A stretch of 64,000 nucleotides of DNA from Centroscyllium fabricii (lineage: Eukaryota), in assembly GCA_051313645.2 (NCBI GenBank), contig JBNRSN020000013.1, forward strand, positions 15,066,001 through 15,130,000. Direction: 5' to 3'. Of this stretch, positions 6,654-60,799 are shown in pieces (within the stretch, counting starts at the first letter, position 1; every line of letters starts with the position of its first letter). The notes beneath the pieces are model-generated. The model made no database searches. It was not told where the DNA came from and worked only from the letters and a program-made list of their open reading frames with translations. The translations under genes were made by a program, and so were the position numbers.

Positions 6654-7753
6654 TAAAGGTCGAGGAGACTGCATCGTTTCCTGGCCCCAACCGTTTCCTT
6701 TTCACTGGATGTCCAATCCTTCTACACCTCCATCCCCCACCAGGTCGGTCTGAGGGCGCTCCGCTTCTTCCTTGATCAGAGGCCAACCAGTCCCCATACA
6801 CCACCACCCTCCTCCACCTGGCTGAACTTGTTCTCACATTGAATAACTTCTCCTTTGACTCCACTCACTTCCTCCAAATTAAAGGTGTTGCTATGGGAAC
6901 CCGCATGGGTTCTAGCTATGCCTGCCTTTTCATGGGATATGTGGAACATTCTTTGTTCCAGTCCTATTCCTTTCCCCTCCCTCACCTGTCTTCCGGTACT
7001 TTGATGACTGTACCCTGCACTTGCCCCTGTACATTGTGCTGTTTCCTGATCTCACCTTGAACTAGAAAATTTCATTCACTTTGCTTCCAATTTCCAACCT
7101 TCCCTCACCTTCACATGGCGCATCTTTCACTCTTCCCTTCCTCGACTTCTGTCTCCATTTCTGGGGATAGGCTATTGGCAAACTTTCACGAAGCCCACTG
7201 ACTCCCACAGCTACCTGGACTACACCTCCTCCCGCCCCGCTTCCTGTAAGGACTCCATTCCAATTCTCTGTTTCTCCGCCTCTGTTGCATCTGCTCTGAT
7301 GATGCCACTTTCCATTCTAGTACTTCCAATATGTCTTCCTTTCTCCTCAACCGAGGATTCCCCATTACCATGGTTGACAGGGCCCTCAACCGTGTCTGTT
7401 CTATTTCCCGCACTTCTGCTCTCACCCCTTCCCCTCCCTCCCTCCCTCCCAGAACTGCGATAGGGTTCCCCTTGTCCTCACCAGCCTCCACATTCAACCT
7501 ATCCTCATCCTGCCATTTCCACCGCCTCCAGCATGATCTGACCACCATGGCAACTGTTGATTGTACCATTCCCATTTACACCTCATCTAGACTCCTTTTT
7601 GTTAATCTGTCCCATTACCATCTCCTTCTGCCTTGCACCCTTTTGTCTTTTAATCTCTCCTGCCTTCCATCCTATCACAGACCTTTTGTTCTTTTCTCCC
7701 CTTTCCCTGCCCCTGCACTTGCTTAAAAATCTGTCACATCTCTAACTTTTGCC

Positions 7754-14749: not shown

Positions 14750-14848
14750 GTGGTGACCTCGTACTTGGAACGACTTCCAAGGGAAATAAAAATGAAGCAG
14801 TTGCTGCAGGACTGAGGGCCAAGCTGCCTCAGTACACTCCCAACCAAC

Positions 14849-19162: not shown

Positions 19163-21713
19163 TGTAGTGCATGCAGGCCTGAAGAACCACGCTGGAGCCA
19201 GTGAGATAGGAAAACACTCGTTTATTACTTTACAGGGACCAGGTAGCAAAGAGAGTGAACCACCTGGAGCAGGCTTATTTAAAGGGCCCGCGGTTTGGTG
19301 ATCTCATCACGCCGGAAGTCGAGGTGATGTCACCGCGTCATCTGATGGGCGGGGCCGTGCCCCGCGGTGTTGCCGAGGCGGATTCGATACCTTTGGTGGG
19401 CGTGTCGCCACACAGCTCCCCCCCAGAATCTGAGGGAGAATAAAGTGAAAATAAAAAAAGGGAGAATAAAGTTAAAATAAAAAATGAGTCTCAAGCGAGG
19501 CGTTGAGGTGGCCGGATGATGCGGCCGGCACGTGTCATGCGCTGCTCCTTGTTCTGCGTGGGAGTGTGGGCGGGTTTTGGTGCGGGAGGGCGTCCGCGTT
19601 TTGGTGGCTGCGCGGGGACTGTTGTCTCGCTCGTCATTACGTGTGCCGGTTTGAGCCGGTCTATCGAGACAGTTTCAGTTCTGTTGCCCATTTTGATTTC
19701 AAAAGCCTTAGCTCCCGCCCGAAGCTCTCTGTACGGTCCGTTGTACGGTGGCTGTAGTGGCGTTCGATGCGAGTCGTGGCGGACAAACACATATTTGGCG
19801 TTCTTGATGCCGTCTGGTACACGTGCTGCCGGCTCTCCGTGCCGGGCCACCGGTAGTGGTTTGAACGCTCCTGCCTGGTTGTTGAACTCTTTGAGGCACT
19901 GGTCGGCTGACCAGGGAGCGTTGGGTTGTGCGAGGAACTCGCCTGGTACGGTTAAAGGTTGGCCGTAGACGAGTTCCGCCGCTGAGGCGTGCAGGTCTTC
20001 CTTGGCCGCTGAGCGCAGGCCGAGCATTACCCAAGGCAGGCGGTCGGTCCAGGTTGCGTCCTTCAGACTGGCCCGCAGGGAAGCTTTGATGGAGCGGTGG
20101 AACCGTTCGCAGAGGCCATTGGCCTGTGGGTGGTAAGCAGGGTTACCCCGAGGTCGCGGGCGATGGTCGCCCATAGTGTTGACGTGAATTGGGGGCCCCT
20201 GTCCGACGTGATGTCGGTGGGTATGCCGAAACGCGTGACCCAGGTGGCGATGAAGGCCCTGGCCAGGTCCGCGGTGCTGGTAGCGATGAGTGGGACTGCC
20301 TCTGGCCAGCGAGTGCTGCGGTCGACCATGGTCATGACGTGGGTGTGTCCCCGTGATGGCGGTAGTGGTCCGACCAGGTCGATGTGGACGTGGTCGGAGC
20401 GTCTAGCTGGAATGGTGAACGTTTCCAGCGGTGCCTTGATGTGTTTGTGCACCTTGGCGCGCAGGCAGGCAGTGCAGGCGTTGGTCCAGGCGCGGACATC
20501 CTTGCGCAGGCCGCGCCAGACGAAACGTGCCGAAATCAGCTTGGTGGACACGTGGGTGCCAGGGTGGGACAGGCCATGAAGGGTCTGGAAGATGTGTCGC
20601 CTCCATGCGTGGGGGACGACGGGTCTGGGCTGCGGGAGGGAGACATCGCAGCGGACCGCTGTGGCTGTGGGCCCGTGTGCTACGCTGGCCAAGTGCAGGC
20701 CGGGGAGGTTGGTAGCTGAGTCGAGCAGGTCAGGGTCGGTTAGTTGGTCGGCCGCCAGTTTGGCGTAGTCGACCGCCGTTTGTACGGCGCTGATGGTGGG
20801 GCGTGACAGGCAGTCAGCAACCACGTTGTCGCGGCCGGCGATGTGCTGTATGTCGGTGGTAAATTCCGACACGGCTGCGAGCTGGCGCTGCTGCCTGGCC
20901 GACCAGGGTTCGGCGATCTTAGCCATTGCGGACACAAGTGGCTTGTGATCCACGAAGGCTGTAAAGTGGCAAATTCCCGAGGAATTTCTGCAGCCCCTTG
21001 ATGGAGTGCGGGCGGGGGAATTCCTGGACCGCCTGCACCTTGGAGGGCAGGGGTATGGCCCCGGTCTGGGAAATGCGGTGGCCGAGGAAGTCGATCATCT
21101 CGAGGCCGAACAGACATTTGGAGGGGCTTAATATAAGGCCGTGTTCGACCAGGCGTTTGAACAGGGTCCTGAGATGGAGGAGGTGTTCCTGGGGGGAGGT
21201 GCTGGCCACGAGGATGTCGTCCAGGTAGACGAATGTGAACTGCAAGTCCCGTAGGACTGAGTCCATGAGGCGTTGGAAGGCGTGGGCCGCGTTTTTGAGT
21301 CCAAAGGGCATTCGGAGAAATTCGAATAGTCCAAATGGGGTAATGGCGGCTGTCTTAGGGACATCTGCCGGGTGCACTGGTACCTGGTGTTAGCCCCGTA
21401 CCAGGTCGATCTTGGAAAAGACCGTGCAGCCCGCTAACCTTGCTGAGAAATCTTGGATGTGTGGGACGGGGTCCCTGTCTGGGGTGGTGGCGTTGTTGAG
21501 GCGGCGGTAGTCTCCGCAGGGGCGCCAGCCACCGCCCGGCTTGGGGGCGATGTGGAGGGGGGAGGCCCAGGGGCTGCTGGAGCGGCGGATTATGCCAAGT
21601 TGTTCCATGGTGCGGAACTCGGTACGCGTGATCTCCAGTTTGGCCGGGTCCAGCCTGCGGGCGTGGGCATGGACGGGAGGGCCGTTGGTGGTGATGTGAT
21701 GCTCCACCCCATG
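19163..21713 (-). mobile_element. 5'-truncated Gypsy copy of the same family (3' LTR 19163-19412, IN, partial RH and RT)
   Basis: Reverse complement of the 14496-19028 family; internal deletion across RNase H near 20970; truncated at 21713. Confidence 0.9.
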
Positions 21714-21765
21714 TATTGGAGAGGTGGTAGTAAGCAGTCTTGCTGATGAGCTGAGTTGAACAAGA

Positions 21766-22078
21766 TGTCATTGTTTCCCTTGGCCTGGGTCTCTGAATGA
21801 GTGGCCATTTATAACAAGAACAAAGATTCAGACGGGATGGAAGATTCAGACGGGATGGCAGGGGCAAGTTCTTTACGCAGAGAGTGGCCGGGGAATGGAA
21901 TAGGCTACCATCTGAAATAGTGGATGCGGACAGTCTGGGTGCTTTTAAAAGGATGATAGACAGGTACATGGAAGGGAAGTAACAGTAGGGGGGACAGGAA
22001 AAATCAGAGACGGAATAAGGGCGGCACTACATTGAGGGCCCAAGAGCCTGTACAGTGCTGTATGTTCTATGTTCTATA
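21766..22078 (+). mobile_element. CR1 LINE 3' end
   Basis: GKFFTQRVAGEWNRLPSEIVDADSLGAFKRMIDRYM; tail tgctgtatgttctatgttcta; 18-bp tandem duplication aagattcagacgggatgg. Confidence 0.7.
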
Positions 22079-25447: not shown

Positions 25448-26083
25448 ATTCATTTACCTTCTTTGCATTCAAACCAATTATCTTTCTAGATTACAGTGGA
25501 TCATTGAGTTAAATGCAGAAAATTCTTTTTTATTATTTGAAGTAATCTGAAATGTCTTTGGGGGGGTGACACTTAGAAGTGGAATGTTCCTCATACTGGG
25601 TTTCATTGTGCTGAATGTTGTCTTTGAGATGGGACTGCAGCAGAACAATTGTGGTTTTATGTTAATGATTACTATTGCTGTTCTGGCTGCATTATATATT
25701 GTGCTGTTTTATATATGTCTTGTATATAACCCACTTTCAGTAAATATAACACTTTTATCATGCTTTGTACTCGCTTCAGAGTCCTCCTCACATCATCTCT
25801 AAACTCGATGATGTTCTCCAGCATGCAACTGCTCAGTGGCTCCACAGATACTCACCAACCATTGCTGTGCTGCATAACCCTGTTTCCTCTTGTCATTTTT
25901 ATGGATGTGGGCAAGGCTGACATTTATTGCCTACCCCTAATTGCCTGTGAAAATGTTTCCTCACAATGTTGGGTAGTTCCAGAATTTTGACCCAGTGACA
26001 ATGAAGGAACAGCGATATATGTCCAAGTCAGGGTGGTGTATTACTTAAATGGGAACTTGGAGCTAATAATTTGGGAGGTGCTG

Positions 26084-27336
26084 CTGGTCCTGGCCCACAT
26101 CAAAGCCAGCGTCCCCGCCGCCCTGGACCAATACCAGTTCGCCTATCGAGGAAACAGATTAACGGAAGATGCAATCACTACGGCTCTTCACTTGGCACTA
26201 AACCACCTGGATAGCAAAGATACATATATCAGAATGCTGTTTATTGACTACAGCTCAGCATTCAACACTCTCGTCCCCAGCAAGTTGTCTACCAAACTCC
26301 TCTCCCTCGGCCTGAACACCTCCCTCTGCAACTGGACCCTGGACTTCCTAACCAACAGACCACAGTCTGTGAAGTTAGGCAACTCGCCCCCCCACCCCCT
26401 TACCCTGAACACGGGGGCCCCACAATGCTGTGTGCTGAGCCCCCCCCCCTCTACTCCCTCTTCACCCACGACTGTGTGGCTGTCTACGCCTCCAACACGA
26501 TGATCAAGTTTGCGGACGACACCACGGTGGTTAGCCAGATCACCAACAACGATGAGTCAGCCTACAGGGGTGAGATCCAGCGCCTTGTGGGATGGTGTGC
26601 CGACAACAACCTGGCACTGAACACCAAGAAAACTAAGATCATAGTGGACCTCCGGAAGACTAAAAGCAGAAGACACACCCCCATCTTCATCCAAGGGGCT
26701 GAGGCGGAAAGTGTGTCCAGCTTCAAGTTCCTTGGGGTCCACATCTCGGAAGACCTCTCCTGGTCACTAAACACCTCCTCTCTGATTAAGAAGGCCCAAC
26801 GGTGCCTGTACTTCCTAAGGAAGCTGAAAAAAGCCAGGCTGTCATCCGGCATCCTCACCAACCTCTACCGCTGCACAATCGAAAACATACTGACAAGCTG
26901 CATCACAGTCTGGTATGGGAACTGCACCATCTCGGACCGGAAGGCTCTGCAGCGGGTAGTCAAAACTGCCCAACGAATCACCGGCACCCAGCTACCGTCA
27001 ATCGAACGCACCTACCTCAAACGTTGCCTACGGAGGTCTCAGAACATTATTAAAGACCCCACACACCTCAGCCACAGTCTGTTCACCCCCCTGCCCTCCG
27101 GGAGATGCTACAGATCAATCTGCACCCGCACGACCAGATTCAAGAACAGCTTCTTCCCCAGGGTTGTCAGCCTCCTGAACTCTTAACAAAAAACTCCGGT
27201 ACCTGCACACCTGAAATGTGCTTTACTGTATGAAATTGTATGTAACTTATTTGCACTACTCTCTGGAGCGGCGAGTCTTCGTTTCGTTGTATTGTACTTG
27301 TACTCTGCAATGACAATAAAACTTGAATTGAATTGC
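26084..27336 (+). mobile_element. Rex1/Babar LINE, 5'-truncated, inserted in an old minus-strand RTE-X fragment
   Basis: [54 protein letters not shown]; tail aataaaa(cttgaattgaattg). Confidence 0.9.
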
Positions 27337-33636: not shown

Positions 33637-34238
33637 AGAGAAGCTGACTTAAAGAACACACATATGGGAGGAAGAGAGAAATCCGATCTCTCCCACATCT
33701 CACCGTAGCAGAGATAGACAGAGCACACAAAGGCGTATTAACATATTTTAACCCATCAGTCTGAGAGCAATGAGGCACTTTTGATTGGGCATGGTTAATT
33801 TCGTGTGCTAGATGCAAAACCGATTTGTATGAGGTGAAAACATGGCAGAAACATTCTGTCTGGTTGACACAAACTTCACTATTTTTGTATTTAATTTTTT
33901 CCTCTATTTTTGGAACCATGCTTCAGTTCTTGTCGGTGAGCTCTCGCTTCCTGTCTGCCAGAGAACATTTTCATTTGCCCAGCTATCTAGGTAAGTTTGC
34001 AGCATGTTGTAGAGTTTAAGTTTTACTTGTATTCCTGAACTGAATTTTGTGATAAAATGTGGCATTTTTGACCCAATTCTCTGCAACTTCACACAGTCCC
34101 CAAGTGGGATGGCATGTGCTATCTCCTTTTTTCCCCTCTCTTGCTCACTTAAACATGCATAAACCTGACTAGCTTGCAACAAAGACAGGGCCAATTAGCT
34201 TTGGAATTAGTCTGAAAGTGGAATTTTAGAAAAAGATA

Positions 34239-34703
34239 CAGGTTGAAGACCGTTAATCCGGCACTGGCAGGACTAGGCCCGCGCCGGGTCCTGCCAGCAA
34301 AAAACGGAAGAATGAAGCTGGACAGTGCGCGCACTATTCAAAATGGCCGCGCGCATGCGCACAACATTGGAAGTGGCCGCGGCGAAGTTTTGAATGATTT
34401 GCGTATGCGTCACTGACCGGCGAGCGCATGCGCAGATCATGCGAAATGGCCGCCACAAAGTTTTGAATGATCTGCGCATGCGCCGCTGAACAGCGAGCGC
34501 ATGCGCAGATCATTCAAAACTTCTGGCGGCTATTTTGATTGATCTGCGCATGCGCTCACCGTTCGGCAGCGCATGCGCAGATCATTCGCCGAAGCATCGA
34601 TTGCGGCGGCCATTTTGCGCATGCGCAGGGCAGTCGGGGCGATTTATGTCGGACGACTGAAGTTGCCGGCTTTTCGGTTACCGGATAAACTGTCTTCAAC
34701 CTG
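34239..34703. mobile_element. Tigger-type MITE, cargo-free form, NRF1/YY1 motif array
   Basis: TA|caggttgaagaccgttaatccgg ... ccggataaactgtcttcaacctg|TA; seven exact GCGCATGCGC. Confidence 0.9.
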
Positions 34704-34705
34704 TA

Positions 34706-35141
34706 GTGCCTGACCCAATGGACGTCTCAAAGCACTTTACAGCCAATGAAGTACTTTTGGAGTGTAGTCGCTGTTGTAATGCAGGAAACGCGGCAGCCAA
34801 TTTGCGCACACCAAGGTCCCACAAACAGCAATGTGATAATGACCGGATAATTTATTTTGTTACATTGATTGAGGGATAAATATTGTCCAGGACACCGGAG
34901 ATAACTCTCCTGCTCCTCTTCGAAATAGTGCCATGTGATCTTTTACGTCCACCTGAGAGAGCAATACGGCCTCGGTTCAACATCTCAGCAGAAAGATGAC
35001 ATATCTGACAGTGCAGCACTCCCTCAGCATGGCACTGGGGTATTAGCCTAGCCATATGTGCTCAAATTCATGGAGTGGAACTTGAACCCACAATCTTCTG
35101 ATTCAGAAGCGCGTGTGCTACCAACTGAGCCACAGCTGACA
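34706..35141 (-). mobile_element. Deu-domain SINE (SacSINE1-like)
   Basis: Minus-strand tRNA head gtgtcagctgtggctcagttggtagc...gggttcaagttcc, followed by Deu-like body and L2-type tail. Confidence 0.8.
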
Positions 35142-35392
35142 CTCTTTTACCGAGAGCATCAGTCAAGTTGTGACTTTATTTTTCGAGTTTAAGAAATGGA
35201 TAAATCTCACTGAAAGCTATTGTTTTCATTCATGTATTTTAAGTGAATTAAACCAATTAGCTTTGTAGTTGTGCCATGTTTTGATGCTGTAAAGATGAGA
35301 ATGCCAGTGATGGCATGTGTGACATTGCTGTAGTTGACATACACATCGAGTTCTGATTCTCTGAACATGCTATCATTTAACTAGACACAGGG

Positions 35393-35653
35393 TGTCATAA
35401 AATGCAACTTCCTAAATAAATCTAGGAAGAGTTATTGGTTGGACTTCCAACCAACCCAGGAACAGTTACTGGTCGGCCAGCTGAGGGCACCTGACCAGGA
35501 AGTATAAATACTGGGATTTAAGCACCAGTTGAACTGAGACACTCGAAGTTAGAGGCTAGTGACTGAACTAGCTTTACTATCTTTGTTGTATTATAAGTTG
35601 AATAAAGCCTTGCTTTATGTTCACTAAAAGCTTGGTAAGTCATTATTACATCA
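35393..35653 (+). repeat. Solo LTR
   Basis: TG...CA ends; TATAAATA at ~35503; AATAAA at ~35602; flanks CAGGG / TAGGG (5-bp TSD with one mismatch). Confidence 0.65.
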
Positions 35654-36772
35654 TAGGGCATTGTAGACAATATGAGGCCTGCTTCTGGGAATGATGGGTG
35701 ATGCAGCACTTGTTAGAATATCTAGAGTAAAACCTGAAAATTGTGTGATATATCCAGGGAACGAACGGAAAAGCCTACTCAGTTTATTTCGGCTAGTAGT
35801 TTTATCATTTGTCCTTGCATGAACCTCCTTATCTGGGGAAGGCAGCAGAATAATACTACATTAGACCTTAACTTGGGCTTTTACTGCCAAATGAATTTAT
35901 TGAGTAAAAACAAGTGAATAGCGGCAGTAAGACAAAATACCTTTTATAGCAGATAATTCTAAATAGTTCTCTATGATTGTGCTAAGTTATGATCTAATTA
36001 TTGCGTAGTGTTCTTTTTCGCACTGTCTATGAAAGCCATCTGGCCTAACTATCTCTGAAGGCTTCAAACAGACCCTCCAATTTGAACAGGACAGCATGAT
36101 GAATAACTTTAATAAGTAGTGGACCAAGCAGATATAAATAACTGATACACTCATACAAACTGACTAAAATATATAACGTTAGTCTATTTAAACTTGGGTG
36201 AATGTTTTGCATTGAACTTGATTAATGTACAGTGGAATGATAAAATAAATCACGACTATGCTATATCTTGGGAAATAAAGTTAATTTGGTCACGGGTGCA
36301 AAGCATGCCAAATGCAAAATCAGAGATTTGTATGAAGTGAAAACTTGCAAATAAATTGTGTGACCCACACAGGTTGGACTTGTTTTTGTAGACGTGATGA
36401 ATTCATGTCGAATACCATACTATAGCAGGGTGCTACCAAATATTTTTTTTTCACTTGCCCAGTCGGCCAAGTGGATTTCTAAAACACTTACCCGAACACA
36501 AATTTCACTTGCCTGAAATTTTTGAAGAAATAAATAAAGATTTTACATTTTTATTAAAATGCTTCAATATAAAGCCATAGATTGTGATTGTGCCTTTTGT
36601 TGCATTGGCCCGGTTTCTGCCCCTCCCTAAAACTATTGGCTTCTTCATCCTATTCCACCTTTAAAAATCTTTTCAAAAATCTATTTCCTCAAGCATTCAC
36701 TTCATTTGTCTCTTCCAAACTTTGTGAAGCCTCTGCAGTCCGCGGGCTCCCTCACTCTCTCTCCCCGCCGAC

Positions 36773-36899
36773 CTTCGTCCAGCAGCCGCTCCAGGCGCGT
36801 GAAGATGGGCAGGCTCGACATCAGCTTCTTGTTCATCAGCTGCATCAAATAATCGGGACTGGGTCTCGGCTTCTCCTTCACCTCCATTTCCCCCACCAT
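36773..36899 (-). pseudogene. qki: Captured QKI (Quaking) exon 1 coding segment with two in-frame deletions
   Basis: [42 protein letters not shown], compared with recalled human [47 protein letters not shown]. Similarity ends at G|GT; no further exon is seen. Confidence 0.9.
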
Positions 36900-37397
36900 T
36901 CCTTTATATATATTTTCCCCCCTCTGAGGACTAATTATAAAGATTTTATAGTTGATCGAAAGAATAAAGACTGAGTTGTTTTTTCTTCTTCTCCGAAGCC
37001 TCTCCGGTTTTTTCTCTCCCCTCAGCGGGTCGATGGCACCGACCCACTCGTGTACAATAGCAAAATACTGCAGATGCTGGAAATCCGAAATAACAACAGA
37101 AAATGCTGGAAAAACTCAGCAGTTCAGGCAACACCCGTGCAGAGAGAAATAGGAGTCACCGTTTCGGGCCGGGACCCTTTATCGATCTGCCTGAACTGCT
37201 GAGTTTTTCCAGCATTTTCTGTTGTTCTTTCCTCCCAACTCTTTTTCATCTCATCTCATCCTATCAACAGAACCTTCGATTCCTTTCTCCCTTGCAGACT
37301 GATCTTGCTTCCCCTTAAATGCATCGATGCTCTTTGCATCAACTACAAGCGAGTCCCACATTCTTATAGATTTTTACATTGATTAATTTCGTTAAAA

Positions 37398-37582
37398 GTT
37401 TCCTCCGGGTGCTCCGGTTTCCTCCCACAGTCCAAAGATGTGCGGGTTAGGTTGATTGGCCAGGATAAATTGACCCTTAGTGTTAGGGGCGATTAAATAT
37501 GTGGGGTTACGGGGATAGGGTGGGTTATGCAGGCTCGATGGGCCGAAATGGCCTCTATCTGCACTGTAGGGATTCTATGATC
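37398..37582 (+). mobile_element. 5'-truncated V-SINE inside the Pack element
   Basis: tttcctccgggtgctccggtttcctcccacagtccaaagatgtgcgggttagg ... gggccgaaatggcct...gattctatga. Confidence 0.75.
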
Positions 37583-38432
37583 ATGGCGAGCCCACCCGAC
37601 GCCGCATCGGTGGAGAGAAAAACAGAGTCGACGTTTCGGGTTGGGATCCCCCATCAAGACTAACTTTAAACCCATTGAGAGAATGTGGTTTAATGTAACC
37701 TCACGCACAAAAAAATCTTCGGCGGGGACCTGAACCCACGCAGAGCCAGCCCCTGTCCCGCTAAAGGCCAGGCTGCCGGCCTCCCGGGGGTGGAAGCACC
37801 GGCCGGCCTGTCGCACACCGGCTAAAGCACAGCGCACAAAGGCATTGAACCCGGCGCTCAGACACTCTCAGCTGCCTGGAGGAGCAGGAATCCCAGCGCT
37901 TCTCATAAAGGGTCCCAACCCGAAACATCGACACCACATCTCTCTCCCCACCGATGCTGCTCAGCCTGCCGAGCCACCCCCCACCTCTCTCCACCGAGGC
38001 TGCCCACCCTGCCGAGCCGCCCGGCCCGCTGAGCCCCCCCCCCCCCACCGCACTTTCTACTGTTACAACCGACCACTGCTGCCGCCACCAGCCCGCTCCA
38101 CCTAACTTGATTGCCCTCTCGATTGACACGCCGTCTCCTCCAATCCGCACCCGCGCCGCCCGGCCAATCCGCACCCGCCTCCAGGACAGGATCCACCGCA
38201 CTTGCCCGGTTGGGCAAGTCCGATTTTGTTTTACTTGCCTGTTGGCGCATTTTGCTTGGCCCGGGCAAGCAGGCAAATGGTTTTGTCGTGCCCTGCTATA
38301 GGTAATGTGTGTGTATACTAATTTGAATTTTGCATCCAACCCATTTGGCATGTGGTAAGAAATTTTCATGGCCATGACCAATGAAATTGGAAAAAAGAGT
38401 GGGTTTTATTTTTACTTTAAAACAAGTACGAA

Positions 38433-39622
38433 CTGGGGTCAAGCAAGGCTGTGTCATTGCCAACGCTCTTCTCGATCTTCCTTGCTGCAATGCTCCATCT
38501 CACCCTCTGGGCTCCTCGCTGGAGTGGAGCTAATTTACAGAACAAATGGGAAACTGTTCACCCTCTGTCACCTCCAGTCCAGATCCAAGGTCATTCCATC
38601 CTCTTGTCGTCGAATTACAGTATGCAGACGACGCTTGCATCTGCGCTCACTCGGAGGTCGAACTCTTAACCATAGTCAACACCTTCACCCCAGCACACGA
38701 GAGCATGGGCCTTGCACTGAACATCCGTAAAACAAAGTTCCTCTACCAACCTACACCCGCCAAACAGCACTACCCCCCCCACCCCCTCCCCGATTATCAA
38801 AATCCACAACAAGGCCTTGGACAACGTGGACCACTTTCCATACCTTGGGAGCCTACTGTCAACAAGGGCAGACGTCGACGATGAAGTCCAATACCGCCTT
38901 CAGTGTGCCAGTGCAGCCTTCGGTCGCCTGAGGAAGAGACTGTTTGAAGACCAGGACCACAAACCCGGCACCAAGCTCATGGTCTACAGAGCAGCAGTGA
39001 TACCCGCCCTGCTGTATGCCTCAGAGATATGGACCATGTACAGCAGGCACCTCAGCACTGGAGAGGTACCACCAATGCTGCCTCCGCAAGATCCTGCAAA
39101 TCCATTGGCAGGTTAGGCGTACCAACGTCAGTGTTTTTAGGCCAACACCCCAGGCATCGAAGGTTTGACCACGCTCAATCAGCTCCAATGGGCATGTCAC
39201 ATTGTCCGCATGCCCGATACGAGACTCCCAAAACAAGCACTCTACTCGGAGCTCCAGCACGGCAAGAGAGCCCCAGGTGGGCAGAGGAAACGCTCCAAGG
39301 ACACCCTCAAAGCCTCCTTGAAACATCCCCACCGACACCTGGGAATCCCTGGCCCAAGACCGCACAAATAGGAGGAGAAGCATCCGGGAAGGCGCCGAAC
39401 ACCTTCAGTCTCTTCACCGGGAGCAAGCAGAAGCCAAACGCAAACAGCGGAAGGAGCGCACTTCAGCCCAAGCACTCCACTCACCCGCCCCTTCAACCAC
39501 CGTCTACCCGACCTGTGACAGAGACTGTAGGTCCCGCATTAGACTCATCAGTCACCAGAGAACTCATTTTTAATGTGGTCGCAAGTCTTCCTCGGTTCCG
39601 AGGGGCTGCCTAAGAAGAGAAG
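38433..39622 (+). mobile_element. RTE-clade LINE, 5'-truncated
   Basis: GVKQGCV, ELQYADDAC, VDHFPYLGS, RMPDTRLPKQALYSEL; tail gcctaagaagagaag. Confidence 0.9.
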
Positions 39623-40302
39623 ATAACAAATACTTCAACATAAGATTACTGATAGTGATTCAGTGTTACCGACAGCTTGTGATAAAATACTCGTTGCCAT
39701 CAGGCCTGTGATTGATGCCTCTGTTTATGATGTCATCCGAAGTCTTCAATGCAATTATTACCCAGTAATCCGCTGCCAACCATGCATTTGACTCTCATCT
39801 GTCCATATCATATAGTAAAGCGCATAGGTTGTCCATTTTTGTAAGCAGCAGTTCTTGCATATGAATTAAATGTCAATATGCTGGCTTTGACATTTGCTGT
39901 CAAATACCACCATTTAAATTTCAGTTTACTAATAAATCTGCAATCTGTCTGATTAGGTCTTGCATTTGGCATGCTCCACACCTGTGACCAAATGAACCTT
40001 TTTTCCTAACATTTAGCATAGTAGTCAGGGTGCTACAAAAAAATTATTTTTCACTTGCCCAGTCAGACAAGTGGATTTCTAAGACACTTGCCCAAACACA
40101 AATTAAACTTGCCTGAAATTTTTAAAGAAATAACTGAAGATTTTAATTTTTTTATTAAAATGCTTCAATATAAAGCCTTAGATTGTGATTGTAGTTAGTG
40201 TACCTTTTAGGTCTGATATCAATCTTGCCCATTACTGATCTGGTATAGGTTAAAAAACAGTTTGGAGACAGATACACTGAAGAATATGTATTGCTACAAC
40301 TA

Positions 40303-40631
40303 CAGGTTGAGCACCGGTAATCCAGCACCCTTGGGTCCAGGCCGGTGCCGGACCATTGAAAATTCTGAACTACTGAAGGTTCGGGGGGAGCGTGCGGCTA
40401 GTACACTCCCCGGGGTCCGGCACGCGCGGGTAGATCACTCCCCGGGAGGGAGCCTGGGGATAGAACACTTAAAGAACCTAAAAAAGCAGCAACCCAAAGG
40501 CCCGACCCTTCGCGGGAAATGGTGGTGCCGCCAAGCGGCTGCTCCGCAAAATGAAGAGCGCCGGTTTTGATTCGTGCCGGACCACTGAAGGTGCCGGACC
40601 ATCGGGTGCTGGATTACCGGTGCTCAATCTG
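40303..40631. mobile_element. Tigger-type MITE with unique GC-rich interior, nested in the hAT-like element
   Basis: TA|caggttgagcaccggtaatccagcaccc ... gggtgctggattaccggtgctcaatctg|TA. Confidence 0.85.
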
Positions 40632-40633
40632 TA

Positions 40634-41005
40634 TTGGACCTGATTGAGGTGTACAAAATTATGAGGGGTATACATAGGGTAGATAGAAAGGAACTTTTTC
40701 CCTTAGTAGAGGGGTCAATAACCAGGGAGCATAGTTTCAAGGTAAGGGGCAGGAGGTTTCGAGGGGATTTGAGGAGGAACTATTTCACCCAGAGGGTGGT
40801 TGGAATCTGGAACTCACTGCCTGAAAGGGTGGTAGAGGCAGGAACCCTCAACATTCAAGAATCATTTGGATGAGCACTTGAAATGCCATAGCGTACAACG
40901 CGACGGACCAAATGCTGGAAAGTTGTATTAGAATCGACAGGGCTTGGTGGCCAGCACGGACACGATGGGCCGAAGGGCCTCTTTCTGTGCTGTATAACTC
41001 TGACT
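40634..41005 (+). mobile_element. CR1 3' end
   Basis: DLIEVYKIMRGIHRVDRKELFP...FTQRVVGIWNSLP; tail gggccgaagggcct...tgtgctgta. Confidence 0.8.
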
Positions 41006-42989
41006 CCAAATCTAATTTAACATGTATAAGCGTGAGACAATATAGTTTGTGAGGAAGAAGAAGGAATTCCAACAGAATTTCATGTTTTGTAAAAGAGGTA
41101 CACAGGACAAGAGTAAATACGTGTACAATAAATTTTTACAAAACATTGATTAGGCTATAGTTGAGTACTGAGTGCAGTTTTAGGCACCCCATCATAAACA
41201 GGATGTTAAAGCTATAAATTTGAGATTTTAGAACTAGCTCCTCTGGAGCAAAGGTGGCTAAAGGCGATTTAATAGATATTTTTAAACAATGAAGGTTTTT
41301 CATAGAGCGAATAGGGAAATACTACTTCCTCTGTTTGGGGCAGAGATCATTGTATCTTTTAAGGGAAAATTAGGTAAACGGGAAGATTCAGAGCTACAGA
41401 AGAAATAACACAGCAGTGAGATTAGTTCTGGATTATTCTAGAAAGCAAGTTGGCCACCAGATTAAACTAGCCTCAATGTGAAAAATGTGGATAACCATTA
41501 TAAAACTGGGATATGGAAAACATAAGACCGATTCAATTGGTCTCTGCTAATGGAACTTACTATTGGTCTCTGCTAATGGAACTTACTAATCAGGTGCCAG
41601 ACCAGCTCCCAGGCCGCTCGCCGCCTCTTCACCCCGCTGCCCGCCTCTGCATTGGCGCTCGCTGCTTGGCTGTGCGCGCGCACCCTCAGCGCTATTGCCG
41701 GACCCGGCCACTGCGCAGGCACCGTTAGGCGCTGAGGGTCATGTCTGCACATCGCTTGCCCGGTTGGGCAAGTGCGGATTTCTTTTGCTTGCCCGACGGC
41801 GCATTTTGCTTTCCCCGGGCAAGCGGTTTTATCGCGCCAGAGTGATTTATTTTATTGTGTAACTATGTTAATCAGGTTCAGTCCCAAAACTCTCAGCCAA
41901 GTTTAACCGGACTAATGTTAATGTCAGTGATGTTGCTCATGGGTAGATTGGGACCTGCAGTGCAATTTCAAAGGTTCACTTTTTTGCAGCCTCAGTACAA
42001 TTGCTGTAACAGCGTAAATTTATAGAAGCAGTAAATCACTAACTGACACAAGATCAAAATATTACACAATTGAATGGTACTGAAAGACTTGGGGCATTAC
42101 AGATATAATGTTTGTAATACTATTTGCCTACACAAACTTGCTGGACGTTACTTTGTCTCATTGTTGTGTGACAAAAATGAGGCATTGTTTTATTCATCTT
42201 TTTTCTAATTCATTTCTGTGAGGGAAGCTGTTTTTTAACTCGAGTACTGGGACAGAATTAGTGTCCCAGTTTAACGGAATGTTGTATCCGTTCAGTTTGG
42301 TAGCAGGCAGTTTGTTGGAGAGGAGCCCAGCCACTCAATTCAAATATAAACATGTTTCTGACTTGTTCACATGTGTCTAATTGACTTCCTTTGAAATTTA
42401 ACAGTTCTTCAATATCTCAAAGTTCCAGTAATTGTTCAGGGGATACTTGTTATTTTTAAATCACTTGAGATTTGATCAGAAGCCTTTAGAATAAGGTTGT
42501 TTGACTCTCCTCATGTGCACATATCTATATACACCCACACTCATCCCAAGGGCAGGAAGTTGCTTAGCTTCCAAGGCATAGGTGAAATTTCAAAAAATGG
42601 AACTGAAGTAACACCAAAGAAAGGCAGGCCTGTGTGGAGAAATTTACTGGTATTTCAAACATCAAATGAGAGTTTAAGTTCATTTTTTTTCCAACGGTGC
42701 ATAGTTTTTTTTCACATTGGGTATTTTAGCTACATTTGCTAATCTGAGTGAGAAAAATAACCATAAATTATTTGAGTGATTTGATTGGGTTATTTTGTGA
42801 TGATTGCTGGTCCTGGATTGTTGACTTTTAAAATAATTTGCTTTACTTATTGCCAAACAAGTGGTTTATGATTGTTTCACACACTTACTGAGATATTTCA
42901 TTTAATCAGTTTCAATAACCTGCCCATTGCAAACTGAGGTATAAAGCCCAAAAAAACACTATTGGCATACACTGTACATTAGAAAGAAA

Positions 42990-45900
42990 TACATATGGGT
43001 GGATGAGGGTAGCGCAGTCTATGTTGTGTATATGGACTTTCAAAAGGCGTTTGATAAAGGTAGGTGAGCAAAATTGAATCCCATGGGATAAAGGGGGCAG
43101 TAGCTGCATAGATGCACAATTGGCTAAGGTATAGAAAAGAGTTTTGAATGGCTGGCTGTTTTTCAGATTGGAGGGAGGTATACAACTGTGTTCCCCAAGG
43201 TTCAGTACTGGGACCACTGCTGTTTTTGATGTACATTAATGAATTGGACTTGGGGGTACAGGGCACAATTTTAAAATTTGCAGATGATACAAAACTTGGA
43301 AGTGTTGTAAACAGTAAGAAAGATGGTAATAGACTTCAAGAAGACATAGACAGGCTGGTGGAATGGGGCAGACACATGGCAGCTGAAATTCAACGCAGAG
43401 AAGCGCGAGGTAATACATTTTGGAAGAAAAATTAGGAGAGCCCATATATCGTCAATGGTATGATTTTAAAGGGGGTGCAACCACAGAGACCTGGGTGGGG
43501 GTGCTTGTGTTCAAATCTTTGAAGGTGGCAGGACAGGTTAACAAAGCAGTTGATCAAGCAGATGGGTTCCTGGACTTGATGAATAGAGGGGATCGGGGTC
43601 AACTTTCCTTCAGCCGTCTGGCGGATGTTTCGGTGGCCGGGGAGGCAAAATAGCAAATGCGGGGGGGTCAGGAACCCTCTCGCCGGATTCCCCCCACATC
43701 GCGATTTTCCCCCTATCGTGTCTGGTCGGCCCGATTCAGTCCCGCCCGCAACCGGCGGGAATGGTCTTTAGGCACCTTAATCACCGTTAATTGGCATCTA
43801 TAATGTCATTTTAGGGGCCCTTGCAATTTTCAGCCTTTTCCCACACAAAACCCGGCAGCTGGAAATCTCGCCGGTGAAACCTGGCGGGGCCACATTCAGT
43901 TCACTGACTCTCAGCTGCAAGTCCATCATAAATTATGAGATTGAATCAGCCATCATATGCAGGTGGCAGGACCTTGTAATTTCAGGATTGGGGCAACTTT
44001 TAGAAGTCTTAAGCACACCTGATGAAGGTTGGAGCCTCACACATATCTCCAGTGTGAACCCCTGGGAAACCCCTCTCTGCACCTTCACTCAGCGCTTCCT
44101 CAGCAGAGGCATATGCCAGAAACATGGAAGCCATTTATTTCATTCCTTTCTGGGCATTAGATGAGCTCCCACACCAGCCGCGGCTCTAGCAGAACCAGGA
44201 ACAGCAACAGGCGCACCAGGCTGCTGCTCACTCAGCCACCCCTGCATGTGTTCCTGGAGTTTCAGCACCGCCGATCTTATGGATGGACCCAGAGGCAGAG
44301 GGTCGACATGCAGCTGAGCCGAGCTGACAGAGTCCTGCGCCCTCCGGCTAGGACTCTCCAGTGCTGCCCCTGTCTCCACCATCTGCTGATGCTCACTTGT
44401 GAGCTGTGAGACACCAGATGCCAAAGCCACTCCATGTCCCGAAGGTCTCCCCGAGGTGTGAGTGTCTGCGCTGGTGCTAGGTGCGCTGAATTCTGCTGAT
44501 GCTGCGCCCTCAGAGGTGGCAGCTTCCTCTGAGGAGTCTGGATGCTCAGGCTGTTCCTCCTATCTAGTGGGGACGGCTGCTTGCGATGGTCCTGTGGGGG
44601 AGTAAAGGGAAGAGTTAGAGATGTGATGCCAAGGTTACATGCACCTTGCATATTACAGATGATCATAAGCCCATCTATTCGATCATCAGAATCATTATCA
44701 GCGACTCATGCAATGTCCATGAGAGATGGAGAACTAATCTGTCACCAGCTTGCTGTGATGCACCCGTCTGTCTGCCCTCCACTTGCGCATCTTCCTCCAC
44801 TCCCACGATCTCCAGGACCGCCTCCTCCCGGGGTGAGGTGGGCGAGTGAGAGTGGCCCTCCTCCTGTCCTCACTCTTTCTCACTTATTGTGAGCTCTCTT
44901 TTCCTGCAATGAGGGAGACCAGTGGAGGTTGAGTGACGATGAAGGAGTGAGTGCAGAGAATCCATAACATAGATACTTAGGAGGCAAAGACGGAGTGAGA
45001 TGGCAAGACCAAGGGCCCTCCCTGTGTGTTGTCAGTTGGGTTCAAAGCATCAGAGTGAGAGGGAGTGTGAGGGCTGCATGGTGGAATAGTTATGTGAATG
45101 TGAGCATAGAGAGAGAGGGAATGGGTAAGGGTGCATGGATGTCAGTGTCAAGTGGGATGTGGAGGAAGTGATTGCTAAAGCTGTGCTGGTGAGGAAAGGC
45201 ATTGGGGATCAGATTGAGGGTGATGGGAATTCCATTCTCACTTTTGCAGTGCGTAGAAGGTCATGAAATCTCTTCCTGCACTAAATCCAGGTTGTGCGGG
45301 CTACTGATAATGAGTTGCCCTCCTCTGCCACCTGGATCCACACAGCCTGCTGGGGAGACTTCTTCCTCCCTGAAGAAGGGAAGAGCACCTCTTTATGAGC
45401 TCTTGCTCCCTCAACTAAAGCTTGCAGGGCCACATCATCAAACCTGGAAGCAGACCTCGGTCTCTAGATGGTCATTCTGCCTCCTGTTCCCTCTGGCATG
45501 AAAGGGCACAAGGTTGGCAGTCCGCAACAGAAGCAAGGCTTGCTGTGGATCTGAAATGCACCAGCACCGATGACCTCATGTGCAACTTTCTGACTGGAAA
45601 TAGTCAATTGCCAAGGGCTCCCACACGCTGGAAATCAATTGGCCAATTGAGCCAAAATTGCGTGGGGCTCCCAGACCCTTTAGGATTCGTGTGGGAAACC
45701 TGACCTGTTGGAAGCGCGCCAATTCGCCACATCTGAGGGAAGATCGATGCCACAGTGTACAAAAGCCAGAAAGTTATGCTAAACCTATATAAAATACTAG
45801 TTTGGCCCCAGCTGGAGTATTGTGTTCAATTCTGGGCACCACACTTTAGGAAGGACGTGAAGGCTTTGGAAAGGGTACAGAAGAGATTCACTAGAATGGT

Positions 45901-50751: not shown

Positions 50752-50936
50752 AATATGTTTTTCTCTAATTATTTTGGTATTGGTAATATTGGGGTCTATA
50801 ATCCTCCAATGCATTAGAGGAAGAAGTGAGTGCCCCATTTATTGATCCTTATTGACCCTAATGCTCATTACTTCATTTCTCAACAATGAGCATGCATTTA
50901 ATGCTGTTTCATAATATAACATTGGTAGTTGGTAAT

Positions 50937-53673
50937 GATGTTGGGGTATTCAATATTCAGGAAAGATGGGCAAAAAGGAAAGGGAGTTTGGGTAGCATTG
51001 CTGGTTAAAGAGGGGATTAACGCAATTGTAAGGAAAGACATTGGCTCTGATGATGTGGAATCTGTATGGGTCGAACTGAGAAATACCAAAGGGCAGAAAA
51101 CATTAGTGGGAGTGGTGTATAGACCCCCAAACAGTAATGCTGAGGTTGGGGATGGCATAAAAAGGGAAATGAGGGAAGCATGCAATAAGGGCACAGCAGT
51201 CATCATGGGTGACTTTAATCTACATATAGATTGGACTAACCAAATCAGTAACAATACTGTGGAGGAGGAATTCCTGGAGTGTATACGAGACGTTTTCCTG
51301 GACCAATATGTCAAGGGACCAACTCGGGATCAGGCCATCTTAGACTGGGTGTTATGTAATGAGAGAGGATTAATTAGCAATCTTGTGGTACGAGGACCCT
51401 TGGGTCGGAGCGATCATAATCTGATCGAATTCTCACTTAAGATGGAGAGTGAAGAAATTGACTCCGAGACTAAGCTCCTGAATTTAAGTAAAGGGAACTA
51501 TGATGGTATGAGATGTGAGTTGGGTAGGATTGATTGGGTGGTGTCGCTCGGGGGGTTGACGGTAGATGGGCAATGGCAAACATTCAAAGATCGAATGGAA
51601 GAATTACAGAACTTGTTTATACCAGTTTGGCATAAAAATAAACCAAAAAAGGTGACTCAACCGTGGTTAACAAGGGAAATTAGAGATAACCTGAAATCCA
51701 AAGAGAGGGCATATAAATTGGCCCAAAAAAGCAACAGACCTGAAGATTGGGAGCAGTTTAGGATACAGCAAAGGAGGACAAAGGGATCAATTAAGAGTAG
51801 GAAAACAGATTATGAAAGTAAGCTTGCGGCGAACATAAAAACTGACTGCAAAAGCTTTTATAGATATATTAAGAGGTAAAGACTGGTGAAATCAAGCATT
51901 GGTCCCTTGCATTCCGAATCAGGGGAATATATAATGGGGAACAAGGAAATGGTAGACCAATTAAATACTTACTTTGGTTCTGTCTTCACAAAGGAGGACA
52001 CAAATAACCTCCCAGAGATGTCAGGAAACATAGGGACTAATGAGAGGGAGGAACTGATAGAAATCAGTATTTGTAGGGATATGGTGTTGGGGTAGTTGAA
52101 GGGATTGAAGGCCGACAAATCCCCAGGGCCTGATGATCTACATCCTAGGGTACTTAAGGAAGTGGGGTACTTAAGGAAGTCGTCTTGGAGATAGCAGATG
52201 CATTGCTGATCATCTTCCAGAACGCGATAGACTCTGGAACAGTATCCATGGATTGGAGGGTAGCTAATGTTACCCCACTATTCAAAAAAGTGGGTAGAGA
52301 AAAAGCAGGGAATTATAGATTAGATCAAGCCTGAAATCGGTAGTGGGGAAAATGCTAGAGTCCATTATTGAAGATGTAATGGCAGAGCACTTGAAAAATA
52401 GTGACGGGATCGGACAGAGTCAACATGGATTTACAAAAGGTAAATTGTGCTTGACTAATCTACTGGAATTTTTTGAGGATGTAACTGGTAAAATAGATAG
52501 GGGAGAACCAGTGGACGTGGTGTATTTGGACTTTCAGAAAGCTTTCGATAAGGTCCCTCATAAGGTATTGACTTGGATAGAGAACTGGTTGGCAGATAGA
52601 AAACCGAGAGTTGGAATAAACGGGTCGTTTTCCGAGTGGCAGGCAGTGACTAGTGGGGTACCGCAAGGATCGGTCCTGGGACCCCAGCTGTTCACAATAT
52701 ATATTAATGATGTGGACGAGGGAATTGGATGTAATATCTCCAAATTTGCAGATGACACAAAGCTGGGTGGGAGGGTATGCTGTGAGGAGGATGTCGAGAA
52801 ACTCCAATGTGATTTGGACAAGTTGGGGGAATGGGCGGATACATGGCAAATGCGCTATAATGTGGATAAATGTGAGGTTATCCACTTTGGTGGCAAAAAC
52901 AGGAGGGCAGATTATTATTTGAATGGCAATAGATTGGGAGATGGGGAAGTGCAAAGAGACCTGGGTGTTCTTGTGCACCAGTCACTGAAGGTAAGCATGC
53001 AGGTGCAACAGGCGGTTAAGAAGGCAAATGGTATTTTGGCCTTCGTAGCAAGAGGGTTCGAATATAAGAACAAGGATGTCTTGCTGCAGCTCTACAGGAC
53101 CTTGGTGAGACCACACCTCGAGTATTGTGTGCAGTTTTGGTCGCCTCATCTGAGGAAGGACGTTCTTGCCATTGAAGGAGTGCAGCGAAGATTCACCAGG
53201 CTGATACCTGGGATGGCAGGAATGAGGTATGGGGAGAGACTGAGTCGATTAGGCTTATACTCACTGGAGTTCAGACGATTGAGAGGGGATCTCATCGAAA
53301 CCTACAAAATTCTTTCAGGCCTGGACAGACTGGATGCAGGAAGGATGTTTCCGATTGTCGGGGAGTCCAGAACCAGGGGCCATAGTCTAAGGATAAGGGG
53401 AAAGCCATTTAGGACTGATGAGGGAGACTTTCTTCACCCAGAGAGTGGTGAACCTGTGGAATTCTCTGCCACAGAGGGCAGTGGAGGCCGGTTCATTGAA
53501 TTTATTCAAGAAGGAGTTGGATATATTTCTTCAGGCTGAAGGGATCAAGGGATATGGGGAGAAAGCAGGGACAGGGTACTGAATCTGAAAGATCAGTAAT
53601 AATCTAATTGAATGGCGGAGCAGGCTCGAGGGGTCAAATGGCCTACTCCTGCTCCTATCTTCTATGTTTCTAT
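50937..53673 (+). mobile_element. CR1 LINE ORF2 (APE endonuclease and RT), disrupted
   Basis: VYRPP, MGDFN, SDHNL (ORF 50929-51879); [22 protein letters not shown] (ORF 52343-53539). Stops, a 17-bp duplication at ~52148 and a deletion after KVPHK; tail tatgtttctatg. Confidence 0.9.
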
Positions 53674-58460: not shown

Positions 58461-59063
58461 TACCACGTTGCTGTGGTCAGTTTGCTCATCCTCACTGCAG
58501 TCCCTGCTCGTGCCCACACAGAGAGTAAGAACCTCATAACTGTTGCATTAACTGAAACCATTGTAGACCATCAACTGAAAAATGCAAGGACGCAAGTTTG
58601 TTTTATCTGACACTTCTTGTACTTTGACTTTGTTTCATAACCAAGAGGAATTTTGTAGCTATTAGTAAAATTCCAGAGATTTTTTGAATGTCTTAAGGGC
58701 TGTTGTAGGTTGTGGTATGAATGTTGCAGTATTTCTTGTGCTTTACTAAATGGGCAATGCATTGTTTTACAGTTGCTTCCTGTTCTCTTTCCACTTGAAT
58801 TGCCAAGAGCATGCATTAAAGACTTGTTAGTGCACATTCTCCTGATGGACAAAGTGCTGGAATCCTTTCATGTATGTTTCAGACAAGCCAGATGCAGTTT
58901 TAATGACTGGAATGTTTGACATGGCACCCTGGGAATTCAAGATAAAAGGATAGAAAGATGAAAACCATGCACTGTCCTGTGCTTTTTATCCTCTCCAATT
59001 TCAAAATGAACTATTAAAGAACAGTTGTTCAGTCAGATGAGACTAGCATTTTTTATATCTTTT

Positions 59064-60799
59064 TGACCCACTGTATGTGGCAAGGCATACAGTCCATCAC
59101 GGACTACAAGTGCAGAAACACCAGCCCCCCGACCGGCGATGCCTCCCTACCGGAGGAACTCAACAACTTCTATGCTCGCTTCGACAGGGACAACAAGGAG
59201 CCAGCCACCAAAGTCCTGCAATCACCGGAAGACCAGCCATTAACACTGTCCTGTTCTGACGTTAGAGGTGCTCTACGTAGAGTGAACGCACGGAAGGCCG
59301 CGGGTCCTGATGGCATCCCCGGCCGGGCACTCAAAGAATGTGCCGACCAACTGGCTGAAGTCTTCACTGACATCTTCAACCTGTCACTGGCGAAGGCAGC
59401 TGTCCCTACCTGCTTCAAAACCGCCACCATCATCCCTGTGCCCAAGAAAACGGCCGTGACGTGCCTGAACGACTACCGCCCTGTTGCACTTACACCCATT
59501 ATCATGAAGTGTTTCGAGCGGCTGGTCCTGGCCCACATCAAAGCCAGCATCCCCGCCACCCTGGACCAATACCAGTTTGCCTACCGTGGGAACAGATCTA
59601 CAGAGGATGCTATCACTACGGCTCTTCACTCTGCACTAAACCACCTGGATAGCAAAGATACATATATCAGATTGGTGTTTATTGACTACAGCTCAGCATT
59701 CAACACCATTGTCCCCAGCAAATTGTCTACCAAACTCCTCACCCTCGGCTTGAACACCTCCCTCTGCAACTGGACCCTGGACTTCCTAACCAACAGACCA
59801 CAGTCTGTGAAGTTAGGCAACCTCACCTTCTCCTCCCCCGCCCCCCCCCCCTTTACCCTGAACACGGGGGCCCCACAAGGTTGTGTGCTCAGCCCCCTCC
59901 TCTACTCCCTCTTCACTCACGACTGTGCGGCTGTCCATGGCTCCAACACGATCATCAAGTTCGCGGATGACACCACGGTGGTTGGCCAGATCACCAACAA
60001 CGACGAGTCAGCCTACATGGATGAGATCCAGCGCCTTGTGGGTTGGTGTGCCGACAACAACCTGGCACTGAACACCAAGAAAACCAAGGAGATCATAGTG
60101 GACTTCCGGAGGACTGGAAGCAGAAGACCCCCCCCCCATCTTCATCCAAGGGTCTGAGGTGGAAAGGGTGTCCAGCTTCAAGTTCCTCGGGGTCCACATC
60201 TCGGAAGATCTCTCCTGGTCACTAAACACCTCCTCGCTGGTTAAGAAGGCCCAACAGCGCCTGTACTTCCTTAGGAAGCTGAAGAAAGCCAGGCTGTCAT
60301 CCGGCATCCTCCAACTTCTACCGCTGCACAATAGAAAGCATACTGACAAGCTGCATCACTGTCTGGTATGGTAATTGCACTATCTCGGACCGGAAAACCC
60401 TGCAGCGGGTAGTCAAAACTGCCCAACGAATTACCGGTACACAGCTACCGTCAATGGAAAGCATCTACCTCAAACGCTGCTTACGGAGGTCTATGAACAT
60501 TATTAAAGACCCCACACACCCCAGCCACAGTCTGTTCGCCCCTCTGCCCTCCAGGAGACGCTACAGAGCAATTCGCACCTGCACGACTAGATTTCAGAAC
60601 AGCTTCTTCCCCAGGGCTGTCAGCCTCCTGAACTCTAAAATGTAACTCCGGTACCTGCACGCCTGATAATGAACTTTACTGTATGCAATTTTCATGTAAT
60701 TTATTTATTTTGTTTGCACTACTCTCGGGAGAGTCGAGTCTTCGTCTCGTTGTATTGTACTAGTACTCTGCAATGACAATAAAACTTGAATTGAATTGA
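59064..60799 (+). mobile_element. Rex1/Babar LINE, 5'-truncated (RT ORF 59063-60157, then frameshifts)
   Basis: [37 protein letters not shown]; same tail as 26084-27336. Confidence 0.9.

Follow-up and report, generated by a model that had tools for sequence, protein, structure and literature searches.

The 64,000-nt stretch of the Centroscyllium fabricii genome analyzed here (contig JBNRSN020000013.1, positions 15,066,001 to 15,130,000 of the forward strand; hereafter the window) contains at 36426-38295 a non-autonomous member of a hAT family of DNA transposons, and this element carries the start of the QKI gene quaking-A. The element lies between imperfect 15-nt terminal inverted repeats (TIRs; 36426-36440 and 38281-38295), which read from the sequence as complementary at 11 of 15 nt, and is bordered by an exact 6-bp target-site duplication, CTATAG, at 36420-36425 and 38296-38301. 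Both features had been proposed in an earlier, sequence-only reading of the window and are confirmed. The outermost segments, on the minus strand, are shared with an autonomous hAT transposon of the same genome: 36426-36581 corresponds to its 3' end (93.6% identity over 156 nt to the copy L151) and includes an AATAAA at 36555-36550, and 38191-38295 corresponds to its 5' end (75%–77% identity over ~100 nt to L151 and L159).

Between these ends, also on the minus strand, lies a 127-nt coding segment (36773-36899) whose translation is the QKI N-terminus. It matches the STAR_dimer domain (PF16544, E 1.2e-9), aligns to solved chains of the Quaking QUA1 dimerization domain and terminates at G|GT (36773|36772-36771), as the earlier reading had recognized. 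The coding part of exon 1 measures 142 nt in the parent gene and in the family majority, and the window copy bears deletions of 3 and 12 nt. Both are in frame, as claimed, and appear against the QUA1 chains as gaps at D24 and N33-G36 (1 + 4 residues; D and NFCG). The frame reads through the exon end for a total of 65 aa and stops at 36702; the donor is GTCGGC, compared with GTAGGC in 57 of 79 aligned copies.

The flanking DNA had been read as untranslated region (UTR) and intron start. The quaking-A 5'UTR is indeed present at 36900-37049 (minus strand, ~80% identity to the parent); intron 1, recognized by alignment to the parent and by a census of donors, is limited to its first ~34 nt including the GT donor (36739-36772, minus strand). 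An additional upstream, promoter-like piece occupies 38121-38185 on the minus strand and has ATTGG (CCAAT-box) motifs at two positions, 38168 and 38144. In the subfamily of the window copy it is parted from the UTR by ~1.07 kb of other repeats (37050-38120), which include an inverted repeat with 44-nt arms (37087-37231) and a copy-specific repeat (~37398-37581; query 715-898) that recurs at unrelated positions in other loci and that we take to be like a short interspersed element. An Rfam match on the inverted repeat fell below the gathering score and was taken as chance. The filler between intron and hAT end (36582-36738, minus strand) aligns in other copies, and its source was not found, as it matched neither the quaking-A parent nor the autonomous element when aligned to both.

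Parent gene and mode of capture

The genome searched comprises 7.2 billion bases. Exons 2 onward of a shark quaking-A protein fell at one locus on a contig that we label C834 (40.76-40.87 Mb, minus strand), and a second QKI-type locus on C1044 gave a 68% match. The parent exon 1 lies at C834:40914520-40914380, with exon 2 following 42 kb downstream, and its 47 encoded residues are those of the family majority; the parental paralogue that the earlier reading proposed to look for is thereby located, and exon 2 of this paralogue is closer to zebrafish qkia than to tetrapod QKI. A probe of the parent type matched only C834, the scaffold C916 and three places at a single mismatch. C916 contains the same exon 1 with readable upstream DNA rich in CCAAT-box repeats; it may be an unplaced haplotype, although its farther flank shows only 74%–89% identity to C834. 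These CCAAT-box repeats of C916 (L166) have 74%–80% identity to the window piece at 38121-38185, which may have promoter function.

Capture thus took in a CCAAT-box piece, 5'UTR, exon 1 and the first ~34 nt of intron 1. The 200 kb fetched at the parent exon 1 contained no family end among matches of at least 80 nt, and both cargos of the family, quaking-A (C834) and RYK (C224; described below), are host DNA with an identifiable parent set between two TIR ends, as in a Pack-TIR. Both cargos retain the donor and the start of the intron, and capture therefore did not proceed via RNA. With the parent gene and an autonomous hAT of matching ends both in hand, the view of the exon as a hAT-derived, transduplicated copy is upheld.

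Both parent genes have 5' tandem-repeat expansions: in quaking-A a GA-rich satellite at the start of intron 1 as well as repeated CCAAT units (L044:3300-4350; L166:7680-7950), and in RYK repeated GC-rich units that precede the gene (L169).

The hAT carrier, its copies and its cargos

The autonomous partner was reached through one family member (L114), in which a Dimer_Tnp_hAT piece scored above the cut-off and served as the next query. The partner has a single open frame of 692 codons with a zf-C17orf113 domain, and its transposase is nearest to ZNF862-like proteins (5 matches among 8,000 scored, best 47% identity). Dimer_Tnp_hAT in L150 was below the cut-off (E 0.006), and no solved structure matched the transposase by sequence. 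Motifs at 230, 295, 324, 387 and 654 of the 689-aa transposase frame are presumably the hAT DDE triad, CxxH and RW. Eight elements (L151, L154-L159 and L164) combine both ends with a near-full transposase (667-688 aa of homology), and four of these eight have exact 5-bp duplications. A separate genome search with PF05699 gave 150 matches, and the family ends were present in none of the 30 loci examined. Several long open hAT-type frames of 589-871 aa on different contigs (L082-L086) represent another hAT family that may be young or domesticated.

Among 76 elements with both ends, exact duplications of 5, 6, 7 and 8 bp occurred in 23, 10, 5 and 1 elements, compared with shuffled-pairing means of 0.42, 0.19, 0.06 and 0.01; nested internal ends were dropped from this census and the best end was taken among several, which slightly favors a match. 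The canonical 8-bp hAT duplication is therefore found in 1 of 76 elements, whereas 38, the window element among them, have 5-7 bp. The groups hAT5 and hAT6, within the Blackjack lineage, are defined by 5- and 6-bp duplications (PMC12730594), and because its duplications are 5-7 bp instead of 8 the present family is hAT5-like, an assignment that sets it beside hAT5/hAT6 by description and not by sequence. The ZNF862/C17orf113-type transposase and the predominance of 5 bp (23 of 39 exact duplications, including four transposase-bearing elements) agree with what is described for these groups, while a single family that gives 5, 6, 7 and rarely 8 bp (23:10:5:1, with 16 of 39 longer than 5 bp) differs from them (PMC12730594). 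Such variability within one family bears on how the groups hAT5, hAT6 and hAT7 are defined.

The search for other copies suggested by the earlier reading showed that the window element is one of about a thousand. When the 411-nt cargo was used as a query, 2,541 candidates emerged, and the 40 of them that were scored are the window and 39 other places (84%–88% identity). All 39 places were fetched, and their alignment with the element extends from the UTR in the direction of the hAT end. A 29-nt exon-1 probe had 469 exact places and 1,014 at ≤3 mismatches, a probe across the exon end and donor had 4,632 matches, and a probe of the family right end had 9,476 at ≤2 mismatches; reversed-pattern controls gave 0 matches for each, and some matches may be assembly duplicates. 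The end counts exceed the number of elements because some elements hold nested ends. The ratio of 469 to 1,014 corresponds to a mean divergence of ~2.6%–2.8%, and the 79 aligned copies differ by 3.0% at non-CpG sites. Copies stand at unrelated sites with distinct flanks and duplications.

A second captured gene start was recognized in L011, where a 50-codon piece matches two RYK proteins of sharks at their N-terminus (82% identity, E 4e-16); no solved structure matched it. The RYK parent lies at C224:170631408 with exon 2 located 139 kb downstream. An exon-1 probe from L011 found at least 112 places, a lower bound since the probe differs from the majority at one base. RYK exons 2 onward occur twice in tandem (C224:170.77-171.07 and 171.16-171.47 Mb) with near-identical scores, and this pair may be either a true duplication or an assembly duplicate.

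Gene-start carriers dominate the family as sampled on C1. Twenty stretches, representing 22 of the first 25 exact right-end matches listed on that contig (two of the three left out are quaking-A copies sampled already), were searched whole and thus beyond element bounds; quaking-A or RYK 5' DNA was present in 19 (14 with quaking-A, 5 with RYK only, 1 with neither) and a full transposase in none of the 20. In 10 of the 14 quaking-A stretches the UTR start and exon end remain without the 5' coding part, which identifies a deletion derivative. A non-random set of 88 full-exon copies comprises 46 plain copies, 24 with RYK exon 1 nearby (on the same strand as the quaking-A exon, and upstream in printed examples) and 18 with a 3' piece of the transposase, at least one of which is a neighboring element. 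A fusion of QUA1 and transposase in the latter subfamily was considered and seems unlikely, as the piece covers only about the last 70 codons. Pfam searches of 148 of 352 frames from 13 family interiors gave no further cargo, with the limit that short pieces such as the RYK exon are missed by this search. A CCAAT/GC-box-like piece in L118:4550-4900 and L123:4600-4830 matches neither parent and is possibly a third captured gene start, and one family member (L126:4078-5000) has an A+T-rich interior with a donor-like site. A second member within the window (40026-41841, minus strand), 1.7 kb from the first, has the same ends, one of them degenerate, and lacks quaking-A cargo; it carries a RYK upstream/5'UTR piece at ~41730-41641.

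Contigs assembled from sequencing runs of three coded organisms, B, C and D, whose labels are unchecked, span the hAT end, filler and exon. The junction of filler and intron was bridged by one contig in run X5, that of hAT end and filler by one contig each in runs X11 and X12, and the joints of the deletion derivative were present in all four runs, mostly with short sides. The loaded element is probably older than the divergence of these organisms from one another.

Decay of the copies and competing explanations

The copies decay neutrally. In the 79 aligned copies, 33 keep the ATG at full length with no stop, 28 are frameshifted and 14 have in-frame indels. Relative to the majority there are 300 non-synonymous substitutions and 94 synonymous ones, where neutrality with a matched spectrum predicts a ratio of 2.55, so that omega is ~1.25, a value close to 1 that is inflated by shared subfamily variants (singletons: 55 non-synonymous and 22 synonymous). 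The 12-nt deletion of the window copy is private (1 of 79) and the 3-nt deletion occurs in 2 of 79; set beside the frameshifts and this omega, these figures give no support to the view that the two in-frame lesions carry meaning. An 18-nt in-frame deletion between short direct repeats (codons 20-28) recurs in about ten copies in several registers and may be either slippage or subfamily inheritance.

Taken together, the shared ends, target duplications, autonomous partner, single parent, copy counts, second cargo and neutral decay make it very probable that this is a hAT5-like non-autonomous family that carries quaking-A 5' parts at about a thousand places, captured as DNA and decaying without selection. 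The formation of such a family could be envisaged as follows. An internally deleted hAT that keeps ~100 nt of its 5' end and 156 nt of its 3' end would have had its gap filled from open, GC-rich gene starts by template switching during repair, in line with the gap-filling and FoSTeST models of capture (PMC8277862). Captures in series over several rounds would yield the subfamilies with quaking-A only, RYK only, and RYK then quaking-A, as well as those with quaking-A plus the last ~70 transposase codons and the derivative without most of the exon. The autonomous partner's transposase would then spread the loaded elements in trans, in a burst now at ~3% divergence.

Several points weigh against this account. 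The capture mechanism itself is something that we infer, exact duplications are absent in 37 of 76 elements, the evidence of transposition consists of distinct flanks and duplications in one genome, and the copies analyzed were chosen by similarity and are biased to well-preserved ones. A further difficulty is the divergence of the parent from the majority, at 5 of 28.3 synonymous, 28 of 141 UTR and 0 of 112.7 non-synonymous sites, compared with only ~3%–4% between the copies and the majority; a simple capture followed by a burst would require the parent UTR to have evolved several-fold faster than the copies did. A master copy that persisted neutrally for long would have accumulated amino-acid changes. 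The changes may therefore have fallen mostly on the parent's branch, or the source may have been a working gene in another lineage.

The latter possibility would have a functional quaking-A of another lineage, or a duplicate since lost, as the source of the exons, and horizontal transfer or hybridization as the route by which the loaded element arrived before its burst. It seems to us rather unlikely, and it would alter the origin of the element and not its nature. The pattern of 5 synonymous and 0 non-synonymous differences with 20% in the UTR does resemble the divergence of two functional genes (Fisher P 0.0002; Poisson P 0.006 against a 4% branch), and RYK behaves likewise, with 28 of 187 upstream columns different, some of them at a misaligned edge, compared with 2 substitutions and one Cys-codon length difference (29 copies) in the coding part. 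However, the majority agrees with the gene of this genome in having V7 and S14, whereas the proteins compared with it show T7 and T14 in sharks and chimaera (four proteins) and A7 and S14 in skates (two). Moreover, where the UTRs differ, G/C is more often on the parent's side (16 versus 6), and both parents lie near contig ends with expanded tandem repeats, which fits a faster, GC-biased change of the parents.

From the intact frame and donor of the window copy one could argue for a genuine but divergent paralogue of QKI, for a segmental duplicate or for a processed pseudogene, but no further QKI exon was found in the window or downstream on its contig, C834 is the only contig on which the remaining quaking-A exons were located, and intron sequence is retained. 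With parent homology that ends ~34 nt into the intron and copies flanked by hAT ends and target duplications, this explanation is refuted for practical purposes. The QUA1-only peptide envisaged by the sequence-only reading, taken here as a poison or modulator of QKI dimers, would gain from the 33 intact copies, whose read-through frames are mostly ~75 aa, from the AATAAA downstream in the hAT end and from the absence of non-synonymous changes between majority and parent. The QKI N-terminus also serves as a portable dimer module in QKI-RAF1 fusions, yet these hold QKI exons 1-3 and lose dimerization with E48G (PMC5680138). Exon 1 ends one base into codon 48, and among the 79 copies the read-through residue is Gly (74), Ser (4) or Ala (1), with Glu in none; I49 and V52, the other residues of the QUA1 hairpin considered here, are encoded in exon 2. 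E48G turns QUA1 into an unfolded monomer and abolishes dimers, and I49 and V52 in helix 2 also contribute to stability (PMC3592866). A decoy peptide is therefore unlikely on this composition, and given also an omega near 1, the frameshifts and, in the window copy, the missing D24 and N33-G36, we consider the idea highly improbable. The copies likely make no working protein, and the window copy is likely dead, with its promoter piece split off and a predicted read-through peptide that carries E48G.

A regulatory role of the cargo, by which some copies would act as promoters or first exons for host genes or as sources of small RNAs that silence quaking-A and RYK in trans, is doubtful as a general explanation, and could hold for a minority of copies alongside the favored one. 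The donor GT is retained in 76 of 79 copies, although this 96% equals the chance expectation at 3% divergence, and at least 21 exact nt are shared with the parent UTR and exon in 74 of 79 copies (at least 25 in 61). Members also lie inside host genes, in L060 by a KHDRBS-type KH exon and in L123 by an ENA/VASP-type WH1 exon, and precedents exist in bat Helitron cargo that supplies splice sites (PMC4224331) and in small interfering RNAs from young Pack-MULEs (PMC5861414). Antisense RNA against the parent, which the earlier reading also raised, would be a putative effect of the same kind. In the window copy, the ~1 kb between promoter piece and UTR speaks against such a role.

Relation to known systems and surroundings

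The closest counterpart is HelibatN3 of Myotis lucifugus, a Helitron that carries the promoter, 5'UTR, first exon and part of intron 1 of NUBPL in about a thousand copies, in a group of animals whose highest Helitron-cargo copy numbers are reached by 5' gene parts (PMC4224331). The cargo design, the copy number and the serial captures are alike; HelibatN3 is, however, a rolling-circle element whose capture is often explained by terminator read-through (PMC4224331), whereas the family described here has a cut-and-paste hAT carrier with inverted ends and target duplications.

Multicopy capture by cut-and-paste transposons has been reported as rare and of low copy number in vertebrates. In a survey of 100 animal genomes, 4 multicopy Pack-TIRs are given, exemplified by cases with 3 copies and with 5 transposition events, along with ~2 Pack-TIRs for every 10,000 TIR elements and 0 in elephant shark (PMC8277862). 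The present family resembles these, and in particular Pack-hAT-N8_XT of Xenopus (CAPSL 5'UTR), in its TIR ends, distant parent and hAT carrier, and shares with them GC-rich cargo and distinct target duplications (PMC8277862). It differs in scale, since at least 1,014 copies have the full exon and at least 4,632 the donor, and 19 of 20 sampled members carry cargo, although the strict cut-offs of the survey pipeline mean that these numbers are not strictly comparable (PMC8277862). Rice Pack-MULEs are likewise non-autonomous TIR elements that join GC-rich pieces of several genes, but they belong to another superfamily and kingdom and comprise ~3,000 elements over many genes (PMC5861414), whereas here two identified genes are amplified by the thousand (quaking-A) and the hundred (RYK).

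The family is therefore a thousand-copy Pack-TIR and a cut-and-paste counterpart of HelibatN3, ordinary in mechanism and unusual in scale and carrier: a first-exon amplification on the scale of Pack-MULEs or Helibats by a vertebrate hAT, with parents, partner and subfamilies in one genome. No earlier description was found in the literature searched; Repbase, Dfam, bioRxiv supplements and subscription papers lay outside that scope and may name it. One preprint on shark and ray genomes contained no hAT, QKI or RYK.

As to why gene-start carriers dominate, it is tempting, if speculative, to suppose that the captured gene starts made the elements succeed and left several thousand promoter-plus-donor cassettes of quaking-A and RYK, with an origin elsewhere as a further possibility. 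If so, the CCAAT- and GC-rich 5' ends would keep an element open or transcribed and thus favored by the transposase, the cassettes could start chimeric transcripts in host introns, and quaking-A and RYK would be tied to the small-RNA silencing of transposons; a loaded element from another shark or ray lineage would amount to horizontal transfer of host exons between vertebrates. The family makes it testable whether captured promoters raise transposition success. In practical terms, annotation and read mapping of quaking-A and RYK in this lineage will be misled by thousands of donor sites and by about a thousand spurious exons that score as STAR_dimer.

Two insertions have notable neighbors. 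In L060 (C1:569.2 Mb; 3420-3542, 6796-6927) a KH exon is followed 3.3 kb farther downstream, in the same orientation, by a quaking-A exon-1 element. We assume that exon to be part of a KHDRBS-type STAR gene; the juxtaposition is likely chance, and the phases would not match. In L123 (3979-4144, 4282-4941) the CCAAT-rich family member lies ~140 nt upstream of the WH1 exon in the same orientation and is a candidate alternative promoter for that gene; the WH1 exon was rejected as cargo, as it stands beyond the element and is equipped with an acceptor and a donor of its own.

Pfam searches of 113 of 296 long frames in the window returned only retroelement domains and the QUA1 piece, with short exons liable to be missed, and thus placed no host gene around the insertion; no tRNA was found at 34000-43000. 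An element at 34230-34710 resembles a miniature inverted-repeat transposable element; its inverted ends measure 25 nt, strong palindromes arise from its internal 73-nt repeats, and related ends recur at 40301-40633. Elsewhere in the window, pol frames of long terminal repeat retroelements lie at 14816-17725, 19494-22026 and 62224-64000, and pieces of long interspersed elements at 25991-27183, 50929-53536 and 59018-60154.

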